IMG/VR virus record: IMGVR_UViG_3300042804_000010
DNA: 36,614 nucleotides
DNA from: a virus
Strand: one strand, 5' to 3'
Part shown: positions 1 to 36,614 of the stretch, in pieces
Numbering within the stretch: the first letter of the stretch is position 1
Layout of the letters: every line of letters starts with the position of its first letter
Made by a program: the position numbers and the translations under genes
Notes under the pieces: model-generated
What the model saw: the letters and a program-made list of their open reading frames with translations, nothing else
What the model was told of the DNA's origin: nothing
Databases searched by the model: none

Positions 1-127
1 ATATAACCTTGTTTAACCCACTGGTCATAAGGAATTTTATCTTCTCTGGAACGCTGCTCTAATAAATCTTCTGGCAGCCAATACATAGATAAACAATATA
101 TTGTCGGATCATCTGGAAGCATAAAAA
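1..127. repeat. 127-bp terminal direct repeat identical to 36488-36614 (circularisation overlap of the contig)
   Basis: Direct comparison: window start atataaccttgtttaacccactgg...tggaagcataaaaa reappears at the window end, and the terL reading frame is continuous across it. Confidence 0.9.
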
Positions 128-16837: not shown

Positions 16838-16887
16838 TGGTGCGCCCGACAGGATTCGAACCTGTGGCCTACGGATTAGAAGTCCGT
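16838..16887 (-). other. 3' half of a tRNA-Arg(UCU)-like sequence (anticodon arm, variable loop, T-arm, acceptor 3' strand, CCA); candidate attP core
   Basis: Minus-strand read ACGGA-CTTCTAA-TCCGT AGGCC ACAGG-TTCGAAT-CCTGT CGGGCGC A CCA; the upstream 5' part has only weak acceptor complementarity (GCGCAAG) and no D-arm, so it is not a complete tRNA. Confidence 0.6.
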
Positions 16888-16939
16888 AAGAGGTGAAATC
16901 TTGCGCTTTCTTATGTTTTCTTTTGTTGCGACATTTAGT

Positions 16940-17187: not shown

Positions 17188-17493
17188 TTATTTTGACTTG
17201 CTTCGAAACTGGCCTACCACATTCATTAGATCAACTATGACATCTATAGCTTTGTCGACTAACCCCATCACAGTCTCTTTTTTGAAAGGAAGATCTACAG
17301 TATTATCTGCTGCATCATAGACGGCTTCGACTAATTCAACAATTGCTCTCTTCTTTTCCGGCCCATGCTTCTTCCCATCGTCAGTGTCAGCCTCTTCAAA
17401 AATTTCAACGAGTTCTTTAACTTCTTTAAGTACTCCAAAAGCCACCTGAAAAACAGTCCAAATTTTACTAATTGTAGTTAACATATTTAACAT
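17188..17493 (-). CDS. Putative holin (N-terminal TM helix, charged C-terminal domain)
   Basis: 101-aa ORF with N-terminal hydrophobic LTTISKIWTVFQVAFGVL; last gene of the lysis cassette. Confidence 0.5.
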   Translation of the reverse strand: MLNMLTTISKIWTVFQVAFGVLKEVKELVEIFEEADTDDGKKHGPEKKRAIVELVEAVYDAADNTVDLPFKKETVMGLVDKAIDVIVDLMNVVGQFRSKSK

Positions 17494-17511
17494 CTCCTTT
17501 TAGTTTGATAA

Positions 17512-17904
17512 TTATCTATTATCCCATCTTGCTTTGTAACCGCGAACATCACAATGAACAAAACTATTATATTTTCCTATACCATCAAAACCAGCTTTTT
17601 CAGCAAAACTTGCCATTACATCTGCATCAACCCCAGCTGGCAACCTTACATCAGCTGCAGTTCCTTCCAGATGTTGAGATTTTTTTGCACCTCCTATCTT
17701 TTGATTATAAGCTGGAGTTCTGTAGCCTGAGTTAATTATAAGCGGTGTATCTTTACCTTTGTGATCAGAAACTAGCCCTCTCAGTATTTCTAGCTTTTTT
17801 GGAAGCTCTGGGTCTAGCTTAACTGATTGGGTTTCATCCCGGCATTGAAATTCCCTTAAATTAAAATGTTTAGTTATTTGAAAATCATTTACTGACATTT
17901 GCAT
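17512..17904 (-). CDS. Endolysin, peptidase M15 family (zinc D-Ala-D-Ala carboxypeptidase-like)
   Basis: ...FNLREFQCRD...INSGYRTPAYNQKIGGAKKSQHLEGTAADV...HCDVR: His/Asp zinc-ligand pattern of M15 peptidases. Confidence 0.75.
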   Translation of the reverse strand: MQMSVNDFQITKHFNLREFQCRDETQSVKLDPELPKKLEILRGLVSDHKGKDTPLIINSGYRTPAYNQKIGGAKKSQHLEGTAADVRLPAGVDADVMASFAEKAGFDGIGKYNSFVHCDVRGYKARWDNR

Positions 17905-18143
17905 TAACCTCCCATCAATTTTACAGCCATCCCAACAATCATACTAGACATTACAGTTATCATTACTGTAATAGTCCAAGTTGGTCTGCCCTGTAAATTA
18001 TCAATAATTTTAGCTATGTCTTGTTTCATATTTTGTATATCTCCCTCATCAATATTGTTAATATCTTTTTTTAATGATCTTCCAAACTCACATCCTTCTT
18101 TGTTTAGCGTTTCTGGATTGATTTCTGCGTGTCCATTCGCCAT
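17904..18143 (-). CDS. XhlA-like holin-associated membrane protein
   Basis: 79 aa; N-terminal charged/coiled region and C-terminal TM helix WTITVMITVMSSMIVGMAV; abuts the endolysin gene. Confidence 0.55.
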   Translation of the reverse strand: MANGHAEINPETLNKEGCEFGRSLKKDINNIDEGDIQNMKQDIAKIIDNLQGRPTWTITVMITVMSSMIVGMAVKLMGG

Positions 18144-18237: not shown

Positions 18238-19332
18238 CTATATGCTTTTTAATTTTAGCCGGTCGCCTAAATCCAATTGCTCCAGTATATGATCATCTAG
18301 TTTGTTTATCACTGACATTTTTAAATTATAACTATCGCAATGTTTAATTATTCCCAAGTAGGAATTAACACTGGCATTAATATCCTCGATATCCACCTTC
18401 CCTTCAAAATATTTTTTATTAAGATATTTAAATCGCTTTTTCATTTTCTTTTTAGTACTTTTCCTCAATTTGCTATAACTCGGATATAGAACATATCCGC
18501 AAAAATCTATTCCTTCATTCACATGTCCAACAGTAGTTTTATTATTAAGCTGCAGCTGGAGATAATCTTCTAAAAATATTTCTATTTCCTGTCTGATTGT
18601 ATGAAGCTTCTTTTTATCTTTTCCCAAAAGTACAAAGTCATCCATATACCGGACATAGTATTTTACTTTCAAGGTGTGCTTTACAAACTTATCTAAAAAA
18701 TCAAGATAAATATTTGCAAAAAGCTGGCTCATTAAGTTGCCGATTGGTGTGCCAATCCCTTTAACTTTTTTATTTTCAAAGAAGTGATCACCTAACTGGA
18801 TACCAAACTCACCATCTTCACTTTTGATTATCTGCCAGATTAATTCCAATGTATCTCTGCAGCTAATTTTCCTTTTTATTAACTGAAATAATCTTTTATG
18901 AACTATCCTGTAAAAATATTTTGAAACGTCTGCTTTTAAAAAATATGTTTTTCCGGGCTTTCGGTCCATTATCCTTAACTTGTCCTGTAATTGATATGCA
19001 GTGAAATGAGTACCCTTTCCTCTGCGACAAGCCCCGCTATATCTGTAAAATGCCTTATCAAATATCGGGTAAAGCTTTCGATATATGCTCCACTGGACCA
19101 CTCTGTCTTTAAAAGGCAAAGCCATGATCAGTCTTTTCTTTGGCTCATAGACATAAAACTGCCTGTATTTTCCCTGTTCATATGTTTTCCACATTAATTC
19201 ATTCTGTATCTCAATTAAATTTCTCTCTAAATTATAATTAAATTTCAGCACTTCCGGTTTGTATCTTTTCCTCTTTTGAGCTTTTTGAGTTGCTATTTCT
19301 AAATTATGATAATCAGTAATTTTCTCAAACAA
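18238..19332 (-). CDS. Diversity-generating retroelement reverse transcriptase
   Basis: RT motifs FYVYEPKKRLIMALPFKDRVVQ, GTHFTAY, IGTPIGNLMSQLFANIYL (DGR-type SQ in place of the usual QGxxxSP), YVRYMDDFVLLG (YxDD); about 360 aa, as for Bordetella phage Brt; apparent TTG start at 19332. Confidence 0.9.
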   Translation of the reverse strand: MFEKITDYHNLEIATQKAQKRKRYKPEVLKFNYNLERNLIEIQNELMWKTYEQGKYRQFYVYEPKKRLIMALPFKDRVVQWSIYRKLYPIFDKAFYRYSGACRRGKGTHFTAYQLQDKLRIMDRKPGKTYFLKADVSKYFYRIVHKRLFQLIKRKISCRDTLELIWQIIKSEDGEFGIQLGDHFFENKKVKGIGTPIGNLMSQLFANIYLDFLDKFVKHTLKVKYYVRYMDDFVLLGKDKKKLHTIRQEIEIFLEDYLQLQLNNKTTVGHVNEGIDFCGYVLYPSYSKLRKSTKKKMKKRFKYLNKKYFEGKVDIEDINASVNSYLGIIKHCDSYNLKMSVINKLDDHILEQLDLGDRLKLKSI

Positions 19333-19586
19333 ATTTTTGACTGTCTTAGGAATAAATAATCACCACTCTCTATATATTAGGTGAAATATTCAAGCCCGCT
19401 CAAATGAGAACGGGCTCATAACTAATCGTGACAGCTTTCGATATTTCGCTACTTGCTATCTAATTAGTAATTCATATGTTTTCCTGGAGGGACCTCAAAA
19501 TGTATCTCAGGAAGGACTAAAGGCCTGTTCATCTTTTTGAACACTGCAGCAGAGGCCTTGACCCCATACTGTCTGATAAATTTGTA

Positions 19587-19703
19587 GATGAGCACAGGCG
19601 CCACGCACGCCAATGTTAGTGTTCACGTTCCACGGGTTATTGTTCGAGTTGACCGTCCGAGCACCGCAGATGCTACCATTGTTGAAGTTGCCACCGGCGA
19701 GGA
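19587..19703 (-). repeat. DGR template repeat (TR), 117 bp
   Basis: 102 of 117 positions identical to VR (20143-20259); all 15 differences are at TR adenines on the coding strand; carries 11 AAY codons in the VR frame. Confidence 0.9.
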
Positions 19704-19727
19704 CCAACGCCCTTAGCCCTATAAAAT

Positions 19728-20081
19728 TTATTTTTTATTTTCACAAGACTTAATCCAGCCACCCAGAAGGCGGCCAATTTCGTCTATTTTTTTGACTACA
19801 ATTTCATGTTTTCTTATAGATAAAAAATGCATATCTTTAGCAAGTCTAATTTTAACTTTTAGCTTTTTAAGTTCATCATCTATCCGGTTTAAAAATCTTA
19901 TCTTACTTCCTCGAGCTTCATTTGCATCTATTATCAATTCCATAATTCTATCTAATTTATTTTTGATTTTTGTACACATTGCAAACTTTTCTCTTTTTGG
20001 AAAATTATCAATTACTGGGTAAAAATAAAGAGTAAAGTCATAATGTTTTCTAAATATCACGAGATCATCTGTGTCTGCCAA
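19728..20081 (-). CDS. avd: DGR accessory variability determinant (Avd)
   Basis: 117-aa basic helical protein located between the target gene and TR, as in canonical DGRs; TTG start preceded by AAGGAG with a 7-nt spacer. Confidence 0.75.
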   Translation of the reverse strand: MADTDDLVIFRKHYDFTLYFYPVIDNFPKREKFAMCTKIKNKLDRIMELIIDANEARGSKIRFLNRIDDELKKLKVKIRLAKDMHFLSIRKHEIVVKKIDEIGRLLGGWIKSCENKK

Positions 20082-20131: not shown

Positions 20132-21169
20132 TCAGGCACTCTGATGAGCACAGGCGCCACGCACGCCAACGCTAGTGTTCACGTCCCACGGGCGAAAGTC
20201 CGAGCTGACCGTCCGAGCACCGCAGAGGCCACCACTGCTGAAGCCGCCACCGGCGAGGAGGCCAATAATAGCCACATTATTTTGCATGTAAGCTTCACCA
20301 TGCTGATAACCGCTGTCTTTACCTGCATTAAGCACATCATACCAACTGAATGAAGTTGAGCCAGTATTTCTATAAGTATACTCGTCTAATCTTTCCCAAA
20401 GGTTACCAGCGCAATCTACAAGGTTATAGCAAGAAACTGCTTGTTCTACAGTTCCAGTTGAAGTTCGACCTGAATTACTTGAACTAGACCAAGCGGCATT
20501 ATTATCATTTTCGTGGCCTTCTGGGCTACCATAGGCAGCCATTAACCATTCCTGCCTGGTTAATTTTCTTTTGTTGACATTTGCAAGACCCCTAATGAAA
20601 TCATAATCATTATAACCCTCAGTTCCTGAGACCGGGGTCGCATTGTATTCACTCACAAGTTCAGTTTCCGGCCAGGTTCCGCTGCCTTCACTTGCAATAT
20701 ATATATCAGCCCAAAAGTTTGATACCTTGACCATTCCAGTAGGGTCACAGGCAGGTCTGTAGTTCAATGACCAGACTGAGTTTGGCAGTATATTAACTGC
20801 AATTGAGGCTGTATCATCATATCTTTGAGCGTTTGTTCTGATGCGGCCATAATGAAAACCACCAATTTTTCTGCTATTATTTTCTGTATACCCGTCTGGA
20901 TAAGTAGAGTTGATAGAAATAACAAAATCGGGCTCTGCATCAGCTGATGGCTGCAAAGCATATATATAATAGTTTTCGCCAAGCGTGAAACTTACAAAAC
21001 TGCCGTCGCTATCAGCTTCAGTCAAAATAGTATCAGTTTCTTTTTTGAGATTCTGTCTATCAATTCTCAAAGCTAATGGAGGTACTGTAACTTCATCAGC
21101 TGCACTCTTTTCAATATGGCCTTTGAAATTGTAGAATGAAGGTGAATCAGCTCCAACAAAAGTTAACAT
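20132..21169 (-). CDS. DGR target protein: distal tail/receptor-binding protein with C-terminal C-type-lectin/FGE-like fold carrying the VR
   Basis: C-terminal ...SCYNLVDCAGNLWERLDEY...LLAGGGFSSGGLCGARTVSSDFRPWDVNTSVGVRGACAHQSA; VR occupies the last about 39 codons; last gene of the tail module. Confidence 0.85.
   Translation of the reverse strand: MLTFVGADSPSFYNFKGHIEKSAADEVTVPPLALRIDRQNLKKETDTILTEADSDGSFVSFTLGENYYIYALQPSADAEPDFVISINSTYPDGYTENNSRKIGGFHYGRIRTNAQRYDDTASIAVNILPNSVWSLNYRPACDPTGMVKVSNFWADIYIASEGSGTWPETELVSEYNATPVSGTEGYNDYDFIRGLANVNKRKLTRQEWLMAAYGSPEGHENDNNAAWSSSSNSGRTSTGTVEQAVSCYNLVDCAGNLWERLDEYTYRNTGSTSFSWYDVLNAGKDSGYQHGEAYMQNNVAIIGLLAGGGFSSGGLCGARTVSSDFRPWDVNTSVGVRGACAHQSA
20143..20259 (-). 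repeat. DGR variable repeat (VR), 117 bp, at the 3' end of the target gene
   Basis: Aligns to TR 19587-19703; the coding-strand 3' end is a GC-rich invariant segment ggcgtgcgtggcgcctgtgctcatc (IMH-like). Confidence 0.9.
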
Positions 21170-21474
21170 TGATCAATCACCTCCTGGACTTCATCAATTG
21201 TAAAACCTAATCGAAATATTTTTCCGTTTGGGTTATCAACAAGTTTGAATTGCACTATCTTTTCTGTCCCTTTTTCTTCCTGAGTCATAACCTTGTACTC
21301 AGGCTCAGGACCAGTTCTATCAGATTCTGCAGCAAGTTCTTTGTCAAACTCGTATTTTTTGGCTGTATTAAACAGCCCCTGGTATGCTCTTTTGACTTTC
21401 GCTGTATAACCAAAATCACTAATTATATTTTCATAGTCTTGTCTTGAGTTAAGCACTTTCGGGAATCCTCTCAT
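21163..21474 (-). CDS. Hypothetical tail-associated protein (103 aa)
   Basis: ORF between the tail tip genes and the DGR target; stop overlaps the target start. Confidence 0.45.
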   Translation of the reverse strand: MRGFPKVLNSRQDYENIISDFGYTAKVKRAYQGLFNTAKKYEFDKELAAESDRTGPEPEYKVMTQEEKGTEKIVQFKLVDNPNGKIFRLGFTIDEVQEVIDQC

Positions 21475-21477
21475 ATA

Positions 21478-22179
21478 TTATCTAACCTCCATTGCTAATG
21501 AGCCGTCAATCATTTTTAGCTCGTAAATATCGCCTGTTGTCTCATCTATCAAGTTGTTTTCTGGATTTGAGCCGTCCGGGCCAGCCTTCACAAGCCCATA
21601 TTCGACTTTCTGAATTGTTGCATCTATCACTGTATCAAACAGCACTATAGTTGTTTCATCATTGACTCCATCATAATTTGCTGATTCTACAGCTGAATAA
21701 ACTGAGCTTGCGTCTAGAGTTGCTTTGATTTTTCTATTAGTGACGAATGTATCTATATAGTCACCAGGCACTGTAAAAGTATCAGCGCTTACATAAGTTG
21801 CAGTTAATGCGCTGTCAATCCATTCAGTCATATTTTCAGCAAGGTCAGATTTGATAGTTCCGTCTTCATTAAGAGCAACTTCTAGCCGCTCCCAGAGAGT
21901 GTTTTTTGTTCCTCTCGAAACTCTTAAATCCTTAATATAAGGATTATATTCATTCTGCAGCACCCACTCAGACCCATTCCAAAACTTCATTTTTGCATTT
22001 GCCCAACCTTCCGAAATGTCTAACCAGGGCATCCCTTGATAAGTATCAGTTGGCGCTGTTTCTCCTGCAAATTGAGTAACAATAGCTAAAAAGTTGCCAT
22101 ATAAAACTTGTTTAAGGCCGGGACCATTAGCGTCAAGCCCCTCTTTATTTGTCGTTCTTATATCAAAATCTTGAGACAT
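21478..22179 (-). CDS. Hypothetical tail fibre/baseplate-associated protein (233 aa)
   Basis: ORF immediately downstream of the J-like gene; structural role inferred from position only. Confidence 0.45.
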   Translation of the reverse strand: MSQDFDIRTTNKEGLDANGPGLKQVLYGNFLAIVTQFAGETAPTDTYQGMPWLDISEGWANAKMKFWNGSEWVLQNEYNPYIKDLRVSRGTKNTLWERLEVALNEDGTIKSDLAENMTEWIDSALTATYVSADTFTVPGDYIDTFVTNRKIKATLDASSVYSAVESANYDGVNDETTIVLFDTVIDATIQKVEYGLVKAGPDGSNPENNLIDETTGDIYELKMIDGSLAMEVR

Positions 22180-22191
22180 GTCACCACTCCT

Positions 22192-24933
22192 TTAATATCC
22201 TTCGATTATAATCTTTTCTGCAGTTCCTCCAACATCATTATTGTTAATGTCAAATATCTGCACATCTACACTATCATTTGTTTTATTCGTGAAATTAGCA
22301 TATTTCATTGTTGATCCATCTTGTAGCAAGTAGTAATTATATGATCTTGGCACTTCATAATACTCTACTCCGTAATCACTGTAATTAATTGTTGTTCCGC
22401 CTACGGGTACTGACAGATTATCAATTTCTAACTCTAAATCAGGCACATCAAAAAATTGTTTAATTTCATTAAGCTCAAATTCAGCAGTTTCAGTTTCCAG
22501 CTGAAAATTAAATTTAAACTGGCAGTATCTAAATTTGTATTCTCCAGTCATGTATTCTTGCCAGTCCGACCATTCAACATTATCGTCAGAAAATCTAACA
22601 TATATTTCAGTCTCATAGATAGCAGGTGGATTGTCTAAACTGTTATTAGGAAAATCATCCAATCCACGATTGGGGAAACTCAACAAGCTTAATCCTAAGT
22701 CTTGGAAAAACCAATCTTTTTTGAGCCTTATATCTGTTCGGCCAACTCTGACTGTATCAATAATTTCTGTCATATATTCAGCGCTAAAATCATAATCAGG
22801 CAAACCGTCTGCAAAAGCAGGAATATCAGGCCAATCATCAAGATTATAGCCGGCTAAGTCTTCTAAATTATACATGTGGAAGAATGCTATCTTGCCGTTA
22901 ATATTATCTATATTATCTAGTGTTGCATTATCTATATAATCAAGTTCATTTCTTTCGATAATTATATTAAGCTCCTGGCCAGTACCTGAAACTTCAAAAA
23001 TTACTGATGTGAAATCACTTGAATACTGTCTAACTCTATCAATTGTCTTAATCATATACATATGTGTTCCATCAATTTCATTTTCAGAAGTCCATCTGTC
23101 TCCAGTAAGTTTAGTCCCGAGAACTTCTCCATTATCCCAGTCTGTTCCTTTTCTAATTTCATAACCTAAAACATCTGGCTCATTTACTTCCTGCCATTTG
23201 AATATTAATTTTGCACCTTTTTGAGCGACTTGGAAGGTGCCAGGTGCTGCAGGTTTATTATCTTTACCTGATATAACTATTTTTCTTGAAGTAACTCCAG
23301 AACTTGTAATACCTCTATATTTTGAAACTGTCCGGACTCTTACAATATAATGAGAATTAACTTTTAAATTAGATATTTCAAAGCTGTCAGCTTCTGTTTC
23401 TCCGGCTATTCTATAACTTTTACCATCTTCTGAATAATCAATTACTGCATGATCAACTCTTTCATCATCAGGAATATCAAAATCTACGATTAAATTACTG
23501 ATTAAATTCCCATCCATGGTAGTATAACCGTATTCAGAAACAGAAAGATTATTTACTTCATTAGGAGCTTCAAAAGGATTCTTAAATTCAGAGCCGTAAT
23601 TCTCCTGCTGCACAACTCCATCATCAGTATAAATAGATTCATTATATTCAAGAGCAGTAATAGTCATATTATGATCTTCGGCTTCTTCTATTTCCATAAT
23701 TCGGAAAGGTTTATCAACCCAACCTGGTCTTTTATGGGTAACTAATATTTTATCGCCGACTTCTGCTTCAATATCTTTTATGCTTGCTCCAAAACTGATT
23801 ATTTGAGTGCAAAACTTTGATTTCTTTTGATAATATCTAGCTTCTCGCCCTGCTTGACTAAAACGATTAATACCATTAAGAGTTATGGTTTTAATCGATT
23901 CTCCAGGAACACTATTATCAATAAATCTCGCTCCAATAGTTTCAAAATTTTCAGCTGGATCTGTATATTCAACGACTACTTCTCTAAGTCTTTCTTTGCG
24001 TGATGTTCCGCGCCTTGCAAAACTGCCTACAATTATATTGTCAGTTTCTTCATTATCTGAAAATACAAAGCTTTGAGTTGCTATATCTGGCTTATCTATT
24101 TTAATTTTTAATTTTCCATCGGACCAAATTAAAAACGCTCTAAAAGTTGATAACATTTCATTTAGAATGTCTAATGCTGAACTTTTAGCATCAATGACAA
24201 AATCTAATTCAAACCTTTTTTTTCCATCGACAAGCTGATCAGCATATTCTGCAGCTTCTTTGAAACTTTCTAGATCGATAAAAGCATCAGAAACACCAAA
24301 ACCAAATCTCATTTTGCTTATAAAATCTAAAATACACCACGCGGGATTATTACTATATTTAGTAACCCAACTGCTGCCAGTCCAAACTCTTACATGCCTA
24401 CCCTTGATTATTGCGGTCATAGTTGGAGTTCCTGATGTTTCTAATTTATTAGCGTCAAGAGTTGTCGAATAGTGGGCAAGGAAAGGAAATGTTTGACCGC
24501 GTTCATTTTTCGACCAGGCAGATTGTTTTCTGTAACCTAATTTAGTTTCTGCGCTAATTGTTTTATCGTCAGCTTTAATTTCTTCTATTGATTCAATTGG
24601 CCCTTCTGAAATTCCAACCTGAATGTCCATAAGGTTATCATTTTCGCCGCTGATTTTTTGATTAATTATGTTACCAGCTACAAGATTTCTGCCATAGACA
24701 ACCGGAACTGGTATCTGGTGACTTTTGGTATTGCTTATCGGTCCAAACGAATATGTTGGCGAATTCTTTGATTGATTCATACTTTCTTGAAATTCTTTGG
24801 CCTCTTTATAATTATCGTAAGAGTTACCGACTGAAAAACCTAACATTGCTCCGGCTGCTATAGTCATCCCTCCGACTGTCGATGCAGCTGCTGCAGCTCC
24901 TGCTGCTATTCCGACTAGTGCTCCTACTCCCAT
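22192..24933 (-). CDS. Host-specificity protein J-like central tail fibre/tip protein
   Basis: 913 aa; follows the M/L/K-like genes as in lambda-type tail tips; Gly/Ala-rich hydrophobic N-terminus, large beta-rich body. Confidence 0.6.
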   Translation of the reverse strand: MGVGALVGIAAGAAAAASTVGGMTIAAGAMLGFSVGNSYDNYKEAKEFQESMNQSKNSPTYSFGPISNTKSHQIPVPVVYGRNLVAGNIINQKISGENDNLMDIQVGISEGPIESIEEIKADDKTISAETKLGYRKQSAWSKNERGQTFPFLAHYSTTLDANKLETSGTPTMTAIIKGRHVRVWTGSSWVTKYSNNPAWCILDFISKMRFGFGVSDAFIDLESFKEAAEYADQLVDGKKRFELDFVIDAKSSALDILNEMLSTFRAFLIWSDGKLKIKIDKPDIATQSFVFSDNEETDNIIVGSFARRGTSRKERLREVVVEYTDPAENFETIGARFIDNSVPGESIKTITLNGINRFSQAGREARYYQKKSKFCTQIISFGASIKDIEAEVGDKILVTHKRPGWVDKPFRIMEIEEAEDHNMTITALEYNESIYTDDGVVQQENYGSEFKNPFEAPNEVNNLSVSEYGYTTMDGNLISNLIVDFDIPDDERVDHAVIDYSEDGKSYRIAGETEADSFEISNLKVNSHYIVRVRTVSKYRGITSSGVTSRKIVISGKDNKPAAPGTFQVAQKGAKLIFKWQEVNEPDVLGYEIRKGTDWDNGEVLGTKLTGDRWTSENEIDGTHMYMIKTIDRVRQYSSDFTSVIFEVSGTGQELNIIIERNELDYIDNATLDNIDNINGKIAFFHMYNLEDLAGYNLDDWPDIPAFADGLPDYDFSAEYMTEIIDTVRVGRTDIRLKKDWFFQDLGLSLLSFPNRGLDDFPNNSLDNPPAIYETEIYVRFSDDNVEWSDWQEYMTGEYKFRYCQFKFNFQLETETAEFELNEIKQFFDVPDLELEIDNLSVPVGGTTINYSDYGVEYYEVPRSYNYYLLQDGSTMKYANFTNKTNDSVDVQIFDINNNDVGGTAEKIIIEGY

Positions 24934-36060: not shown

Positions 36061-36614
36061 CTAAATCATGTTTTCATACTCTTGCATTTTGTCTTGGAGT
36101 ATCACATAAGCATTAAGCATTGCAGCTGTACCATCAATTCTTTTTCTTTGATTACGCTGCTTTGCGGGTTGTATATTAAGATTTTTATCTATATCAACTG
36201 AGGTATTACTCAAACACCATTTAGTTATTGGATTGTTGTCATAATTAATTTTATGAGCTTTTAAATCAGCCCCCAGTTGTTTCATTGGTCCTGATAATGT
36301 TTTTTTACCCTGGATAACTGGAATCATTGCTTCTTTACCAAAATGACCTTGCATTTCCTCAACCCAGTAATTAGCACTCCAGGAGTCATAACCAATCCAG
36401 GGAATATAAATATCTAATTCATTTTGGACCTCTAAATACCACCGAGTAACAAATTTCGGATGCACTTTGTTGCCTGGAGTGGTTCTCATATAACCTTGTT
36501 TAACCCACTGGTCATAAGGAATTTTATCTTCTCTGGAACGCTGCTCTAATAAATCTTCTGGCAGCCAATACATAGATAAACAATATATTGTCGGATCATC
36601 TGGAAGCATAAAAA
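36061..36614 (-). CDS. terL: Terminase large subunit, C-terminal (nuclease) portion; 5' part is at 1-1403
   Basis: Track ORF 36061..36609 is in frame with the manually translated ORF ending at window position 1; 36488-36614 duplicates 1-127. Confidence 0.85.
   Translation of the reverse strand, partial: FMLPDDPTIYCLSMYWLPEDLLEQRSREDKIPYDQWVKQGYMRTTPGNKVHPKFVTRWYLEVQNELDIYIPWIGYDSWSANYWVEEMQGHFGKEAMIPVIQGKKTLSGPMKQLGADLKAHKINYDNNPITKWCLSNTSVDIDKNLNIQPAKQRNQRKRIDGTAAMLNAYVILQDKMQEYENMI

Follow-up and report, generated by a model that had tools for sequence, protein, structure and literature searches.

The window analysed here, the whole 36,614-nt viral DNA stretch of IMG/VR record IMGVR_UViG_3300042804_000010, carries a complete diversity-generating retroelement (DGR) whose target gene lies at 20132..21169 on the minus strand (ATG at 21169, stop at 20132-20134). 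On sequence comparison, the 345-residue target protein is a true homologue of Mtd of Bordetella phage BPP-1, beyond a generic protein of the C-type lectin (CLec) fold. It very probably serves a temperate Halanaerobium siphovirus as its receptor-binding (tropism) protein of the Mtd family and is the sole target of a classical BPP-1-type DGR. A preliminary description of this DNA had proposed a DGR target with a CLec/FGE fold that closes the tail gene cluster. Our results give the protein a stronger identity than that, an Mtd orthologue in an active BPP-1-type DGR. The open reading frame (ORF) listing of the minus strand gives exactly the span 20132-21169 for the gene.

The Mtd-family target and its retroelement

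The target consists of a short N-terminal strand region, the Mtd 'second' beta-sandwich (about residues 34-133), and a C-terminal CLec/FGE-type fold. The Pfam family mtd_2nd (PF21916) matched residues 34-133 with an E value of 7.8e-25 (87.8 bits against a cut-off of 24.6). A phmmer search of the PDB aligned residues 52-342 with residues 94-377 of BPP-1 Mtd (E 1.5e-12), thus spanning both the sandwich and the C-terminal domain. Variants of BPP-1 Mtd were the only significant matches in that search, the next two being EgtB chains at E 0.005-0.014. BLASTP against BPP-1 Mtd gave E 1e-17, and the target also matched PHROG 11262, a 'tail protein' family (E 8e-51). The scaffold motifs pointed out in the preliminary description were all located in the protein: VDCAGNLWERLDE occupies residues 250-262 (VDCAGNLWE at 250-258), GLCGARTV residues 314-321, and VGVRGACAH residues 334-342.

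Structure prediction agrees with the sequence matches. The AlphaFold2 model, built with 72 homologues, has a predicted local distance difference test score (pLDDT) of 94.9 and a predicted template modelling score of 0.92, with a pLDDT of 93-98 in the variable region. In a Foldseek search of the PDB with this model, Mtd was the best match (E 6e-20, TM 0.74), followed by TaqVP, ToxD, OvsA/EgtB, TvpA, and FGE. The proposed fold is therefore borne out, and in the suggested comparison with Mtd and TvpA-type folds Mtd ranks best, with TvpA among the next matches. Matches in the BFVD viral structure library are mostly annotated as tail fibre proteins. The target missed the threshold of Pfam FGE-sulfatase (PF03781; 11.6 bits against 23.3, E 0.22), although some members of the target family do exceed it in precomputed data.

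The variable repeat (VR; 20143..20259, minus strand) encodes target residues 304-343. The template repeat (TR; 19587..19703, minus strand), which repeats the target's last 117 nt, lies 556 nt downstream of the VR and contains 26 adenines. The two are 87% identical, and all 15 mismatches fall on TR adenines, with the A-to-N differences spanning 20170-20245; from base composition alone, the chance of such a pattern is about 1.6e-10. The window contains no second repeat pair of this kind, and a second target gene was rejected on the grounds of its single VR and single TR. A 66-residue ORF at 19507..19707 was also rejected as a gene, being the TR read in the target's frame; in that frame, the TR reads LAGGNFNNGSICGARTVNSNNNPWNVNTNIGVRGACAH. 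At its 3' end, the VR shares with the TR an invariant stretch resembling the initiation of mutagenic homing (IMH) element, GGCGTGCGTGGCGCC TGTGCTCATC (20143..20167, minus strand). These 25 nt consist of a GC-rich 15-mer plus 10 nt, have exact matches at just two sites in the window, and are invariant in all related loci. Immediately past them, the VR and TR diverge completely.

The coding capacity of the TR is large. Its ten AAY codons stand at target positions 309, 311, 312, 322, 324, 325, 326, 329, 331, and 333, and each of them can yield 15 amino acids and never a stop. Five further codons have a single adenine at the first position (314, 315, 320, 332, and 334). The potential repertoire is about 15^10 x 4^5 = 5.9e14 proteins, a figure in which the invariant 3' end, with its two adenine codons, is not counted. 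The target VR aligns without gaps to the VR of BPP-1 Mtd at an offset of +35. When the BPP-1 variable codons were recomputed from NC_005357, nine of the ten AAY codons coincided with Mtd AAC codons (344, 346, 347, 357, 359, 360, 364, 366, and 368), and target residue 334 aligned with Mtd 369. Those Mtd residues make up the solvent-exposed surface through which Mtd contacts pertactin (PMC2408619, PMC5758913). This positional homology supports an Mtd-like ligand-binding face as the likely site of the variable codons. The mapping of VR codons onto a binding face that had been called for earlier thus comes out, by alignment, at nine AAY codons of ten.

The other parts of the retroelement follow the target in the order target-avd-TR-RT, with Avd between VR and TR and the reverse transcriptase (RT) after the TR. 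Avd (19728..20081, minus strand; 117 residues, pI 9.6) matches Pfam bAvd (E 5e-28) and exceeds the cut-off of the NCBIfam equivalog NF033474 (DivGenRetAVD; 105 bits against 80); it is 25% identical to BPP-1 Avd. The RT (18238..19332, minus strand; 364 residues, Pfam RVT_1) is 36% identical to BPP-1 Brt (E 2e-63), and its IGNLMSQ and YMDD motifs align with IGSLTSQ and YMDD of Brt. The element is therefore a complete DGR, and the proposed status of the gene as its target holds on both the adenine-specific mismatches and the presence of Avd and a Brt-like RT. Scans for promoters and terminators around the cassette returned sites no more numerous than in shuffled sequence.

Between TR and RT lies a 254-nt spacer (19333..19586, minus strand) that probably forms the structured 3' portion of the DGR RNA, as judged from conservation and RNAalifold. 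Across relatives, identity is 100% for the TR, 94-98% for the spacer, 74-88% for Avd, 85-89% for the RT, and 82-84% for the target body. RNAalifold predicted 53 pairs in the spacer, nine of them with compensatory changes compared with 0-2 in register-shifted controls, and these changes derive from essentially one diverged lineage. Structured DGR RNA is known from BPP-1, and the predicted spacer fold agrees with it (PMC6182149). An Rfam scan found no match to a DGR RNA family, its only match being a tRNA-like one. In two related loci (L018 and L020), the target protein shares only about 75% identity with that of the window, yet the spacer is 98% identical, a mosaicism which suggests that recombination exchanges target alleles and retroelement cores.

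Natural diversification and the role of the target

Seven IMG/VR loci have a TR identical to that of the window, and one more differs from it by a single base. The VRs of these loci differ from their own TR at 5-15 sites, and either all of the differences or 13-14 of 15 are at TR adenines. The target's 90% cluster has 33 members; the aligned ones are identical or nearly so outside residues 309-334 and strongly divergent inside. Among 14 variants of at least 90% identity, the columns of TR-adenine codons hold 5.2 residue types each, compared with 1.12 elsewhere. The DGR is therefore active in nature within this lineage, because an identical TR is accompanied by different VRs that vary almost wholly at TR-adenine sites. 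The TR is kept at 100% in loci whose flanking genes are 82-89% identical. An identical TR with differing VRs is unusually clean natural evidence of DGR activity.

Several loci deserve separate mention. In L009-L011 (IMG/VR 3300026744, 3300026775, and 3300026736), the 15 VR-TR differences include two at TR positions other than adenine (C to G and G to C), reflecting either non-canonical mutagenesis or ordinary point mutation. An apparent insertion of about 500 nt in the target gene of L017, L018, L020, L021, and L026 was rejected as an artefact, since tblastn also matches the TR 553 nt downstream; the target ORF is intact at 343 residues. A decayed DGR is present in the prophage of H. salsuginis ATCC 51327 (L025 11064-11498; NZ_FOTI01000043.1). 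There, a deletion joins the N-terminus of Avd (ADTDD) to the C-terminal part of the RT (YMDDFVLLGK...) with loss of the TR. The target gene and VR are intact, the VR being frozen by the TR loss.

By analogy with BPP-1, the TR-spacer RNA would be reverse-transcribed by RT-Avd with random incorporation opposite adenines, and the cDNA would replace the VR as far as the GC-rich IMH-like element. Fifteen codons (ten AAY and five four-way) would be rewritten, so that about 6e14 proteins could be shown on the solvent-exposed ligand-binding face. The target, presumably a trimer, would sit on the tail tip or fibres, and phage progeny would thereby adsorb to altered or new host surface receptors. We infer the receptor-binding role from the Mtd homology, the variable codons at Mtd ligand-contact positions, the PHROG 'tail protein' match, and the structure matches to tail fibres. 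Its probable location in the virion follows from the position in the tail module together with the homology to Mtd.

Several points weigh against this interpretation. The evidence for the target's presence in the virion and its binding of a receptor is indirect, and the surface exposure of the VR residues is deduced from alignment to Mtd. The N-terminus is about 35-40 residues shorter than that of Mtd, a family marked by an intertwined trimer with an N-terminal beta-prism, and the structure prediction is for a monomer only. The equivalents of IMH and IMH* are identical over 25 nt, and discrimination between donor and recipient must reside in the flanks; Wu et al. report DGR cases with no IMH/IMH* distinction (PMC5758913). 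No GC-rich inverted repeat like that of BPP-1 was found after the VR when 81 nt were folded (z = 0.01), and the sequence downstream of the VR has only a weak 5-bp stem (ATCAG-n5-CTGAT). Such GC-rich repeats are present in only 34% of DGRs and hence are not universal (PMC5758913). The population data show activity of the lineage, not necessarily of the window's own genome. Finally, the C-terminus of the J-like protein encoded upstream could be the primary receptor binder, with the target as an accessory adhesin.

This last point leads to an alternative that we regard as unlikely but the strongest of its kind. The target would be virion-associated as an adhesin of the side-fibre type, while the J-like tip makes the essential receptor contact; diversification would then tune the adsorption rate or environmental binding and not host range. 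Stf and J of phage lambda are the model for accessory versus essential receptor contact. The J-like protein directly upstream is full length (913 residues) and has about 230 C-terminal residues past its conserved core, and Mtd-like cassettes occur on tails of the siphovirus, Mu-like, P2-like, and podovirus kinds, which come with tip proteins of their own. However, Mtd is the tropism determinant in BPP-1 (PMC5758913, PMC2408619), and the strong natural diversification of the VR implies selection on what the target binds. We favour the target as the receptor-binding tropism protein.

It is improbable that the window's DGR is a recently inactivated fossil whose VR-TR differences record past activity only. 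A decayed version does exist, in the ATCC 51327 prophage, and the window lacks a GC-rich cruciform element past the VR, although such repeats, as noted, occur in only about a third of DGRs. In the window, however, none of Avd, TR, spacer, and RT is damaged, the catalytic YMDD is present, and many relatives whose VRs differ share its exact TR sequence. That the target is an enzyme of the FGE/EgtB type, as the annotation of its Chromohalobacter phage YPCBV-1 homologue has it, or a cell-surface protein expressed from the prophage and not a virion component, is the least probable reading, and we set it aside.

A conserved partner protein encoded before the target

Directly before the target, a 103-residue ORF (21163..21474, minus strand) overlaps its start codon (ATGCTGA). 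The encoded protein is acidic (pI 5.2) and is a member of a family that has no annotation and is associated with Mtd-type DGRs. It had no match in Pfam, PHROGs, NCBIfam, the PDB (sequence and profile), or phages (tblastn). BLASTP against Bbp9 of BPP-1 was negative, and BPP-1 has no gene of this type. The AlphaFold2 model was poor, with a pLDDT of 62.7 and values below 50 at residues 40-80. The preliminary description had called this ORF and its neighbour of 233 residues two small tail-associated ORFs. Both ORFs are present, but their tail association is unproven, with no family or structure match, and the occurrence of the 103-residue ORF follows that of the retroelement, not the type of tail.

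The distribution of the family documents this. With a profile made from Halanaerobium sequences only, the partner was found directly upstream of the mtd-like gene in all seven distant loci sampled (E 3e-9 to 3e-48). These loci (L028, L030, L033, and L036-L039) have Mtd identities of at least 36% and lie in siphovirus, Mu-like, and P2-like contexts. Among 44 assessable IMG/VR Mtd loci, 35 have both partner and RT, six have neither, and three are discordant (Fisher p 2.7e-5, to be read with the phylogenetic non-independence of the loci in mind). An exhaustive search yielded 215 cluster representatives of the family, almost all stand-alone proteins of about 100-120 residues.

Three of the 215 representatives are C-terminal fusions to DGR RTs, and a full partner domain is present in 34 of the best 120 relatives of one fused RT. 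At two fusion loci (L040 7001-8284 and L041 7001-8347), the RT::partner ORF is continuous in the standard code and lies within a genuine DGR, VR/TR mismatches falling on TR adenines in 13 of 13 and 24 of 25 cases. The order in this separate, diverged lineage is long Mtd-like target-TR-RT::partner, and no Avd was found within 7 kb at either locus. Wu et al. (2018) list Avd, HRDC, MSL, and CH1 as DGR accessory genes and report unexplained C-terminal extensions in about 20% of RTs (PMC5758913). The partner family is unlike MSL and CH1 in size or context, and it might explain those motif-less extensions.

We tentatively propose that the 103-residue protein is an unrecognised accessory component of Mtd-type DGRs, a retrohoming factor and not a tail protein; this is possible but well short of established. 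It could act in target recognition or in cDNA integration. A chaperone or adaptor of Mtd is the alternative. If the family is a true DGR component, it would be an additional component of a mechanism in which integration at the target is still poorly understood, and it is the only element in this analysis able to change current knowledge.

Genome context and comparison with known systems

A perfect direct repeat of 127 nt stands at the two ends of the window (1-127 and 36488-36614), and independent assemblies from other samples gave 36.6-kb contigs with different start points. This terminal repeat and the differently permuted contigs together indicate that the window is a circular genome, complete at about 36,487 bp. 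Its genes specify a portal, an S78 prohead protease, an HK97-type capsid, a tape measure, gpM/L/K-like proteins, and a J-like tip protein, followed after the tail by the 233- and 103-residue ORFs, the DGR, a putative holin, an M15 endolysin, and a lysogeny module (CI-like repressor and integrase). The phage is a temperate siphovirus whose host, Halanaerobium, is a genus of halophilic anaerobes with some isolates from the saline subsurface. Genomes of H. salsuginis and H. saccharolyticum contain prophage copies, as does a metagenome-assembled genome of Halanaerobiales. A megablast search with 19.6 kb of the window found no near-identical phage genome among 50,697 phage records.

The J-like central tail fibre or tip protein of 913 residues (22192..24933, minus strand; PHROG 31 'central tail fiber J', E 8e-86; Pfam Phage-tail_3 and fn3) is the last recognisable tail gene upstream of the target. 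The 233-residue ORF (21478..22179, minus strand), between the J-like gene and the 103-residue ORF, is kept in Halanaerobium phage relatives. It had no match in Pfam, PHROGs, NCBIfam, the PDB (sequence and profile), or phages (tblastn); its positional counterparts in L036 and L038 show only weak similarity to it, and it may be a fibre stem or an adaptor specific to the tail. Right after the DGR, a 79-residue membrane protein (putative holin) and an M15 peptidase endolysin (17512..18143, minus strand; Pfam Peptidase_M15_3, E 2.5e-22) mark the end of the structural module. The target thus does end the tail module as first described, with the J-like protein and two small ORFs before it and Avd-TR-RT and then the lysis genes after it.

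DNA identity with relatives falls to about 55-64% right past the RT. The lysis cassette (17188-18143, minus strand) is swapped among the syntenic relatives L001, L025, and L026, with the M15 peptidase in the window and holin_4 plus GH108, an amidase-type enzyme, or a lysozyme-like protein in the relatives. The tRNA match of the Rfam scan (32.5 bits) lies at 16841-16906 (minus strand) and was not called by ARAGORN. Of the tRNA structure, it keeps intact just the anticodon arm (UCU, Arg), the T arm, and the 3' end of the acceptor, CCA included, and it is probably an attP core derived from a host tRNA-Arg gene.

The closest known system is that of BPP-1. The target is 27% identical to Mtd over 312 columns, the VR is at the extreme C-terminus with the AAY spacing shared at nine of ten positions, and Avd and RT are homologous at 25% and 36% identity. 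The order mtd-avd-TR-brt, then lysis genes, then a tRNA-derived att site is also common to both. In BPP-1, this site is in the 3' end of tRNA-His just beyond the lysis genes; in the window, it is probably in the tRNA-Arg-like fragment. The differences are several. The host is an anaerobic halophilic Halanaerobium, whereas that of BPP-1 is a proteobacterium, and the tail is lambda-like siphoviral with a J-like tip, whereas that of BPP-1 is podoviral. The window's target is 36 residues shorter than Mtd, at the N-terminus; the TR has 26 adenines compared with 23, and there are 15 variable codons compared with 12. Unlike BPP-1, the window has no GC-rich hairpin past the VR, its shared VR/TR 3' end is identical, and a conserved 103-residue gene precedes the target. 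The BPP-1/Mtd paradigm is thereby extended to a temperate Halanaerobium siphovirus, a finding of modest value in itself for a known system.

In the scheme of Wu et al. (2018), the element resembles 'category a' with a CLec1 VR: a target with an Mtd domain and of Mtd-like size, phage flanks, and architecture B1 (target-avd-TR-RT) (PMC5758913). That class held only 12 of the 372 GenBank DGRs in their survey (PMC5758913), and the target family has more than 560 matches in IMG/VR alone. The main text of the literature found does not mention a Halanaerobium member of the class. TvpA of Treponema denticola, TaqVP of Thermus aquaticus, and FGE/EgtB differ from the target in having no Mtd beta-sandwich and in their cellular, not phage-tail, contexts; the target had no sequence match to them over family thresholds.

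The closest deposited phage relative is gp53 of Chromohalobacter phage YPCBV-1 (49% identity). This phage and Mu-like prophages of Halomonadaceae have the same cassette of 103-residue partner, Mtd, Avd, TR, and RT. The YPCBV-1 homologue (L028 6824-7873, UXF57506.1) is annotated as a 'SUMF1/EgtB/PvdO family nonheme iron enzyme', which is probably a fold-level misannotation of a tail protein because of its Mtd domain and DGR context. Probable misannotation of Mtd-type proteins as iron enzymes is thus flagged here. Three other loci, L036 (4694-5993), L031, and L032, have Mtd-like genes with no RT or Avd within 5-6 kb, L036 keeping the 103-residue partner; either these Mtd homologues are not diversified or a distant RT acts on them. 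In YPCBV-1, the cassette is on a Mu-like myovirus baseplate, whereas in the window it is on a J-type siphovirus tip. Homologues sit behind Mu-like baseplates (Chromohalobacter phage YPCBV-1, Halomonas, and Thioalkalivibrio), a P2-like baseplate, and J-type siphovirus tips, and also in podovirus-like modules and a Methanosarcinales virus. Four tail architectures carry the Mtd cassette, which is evidently a portable module.

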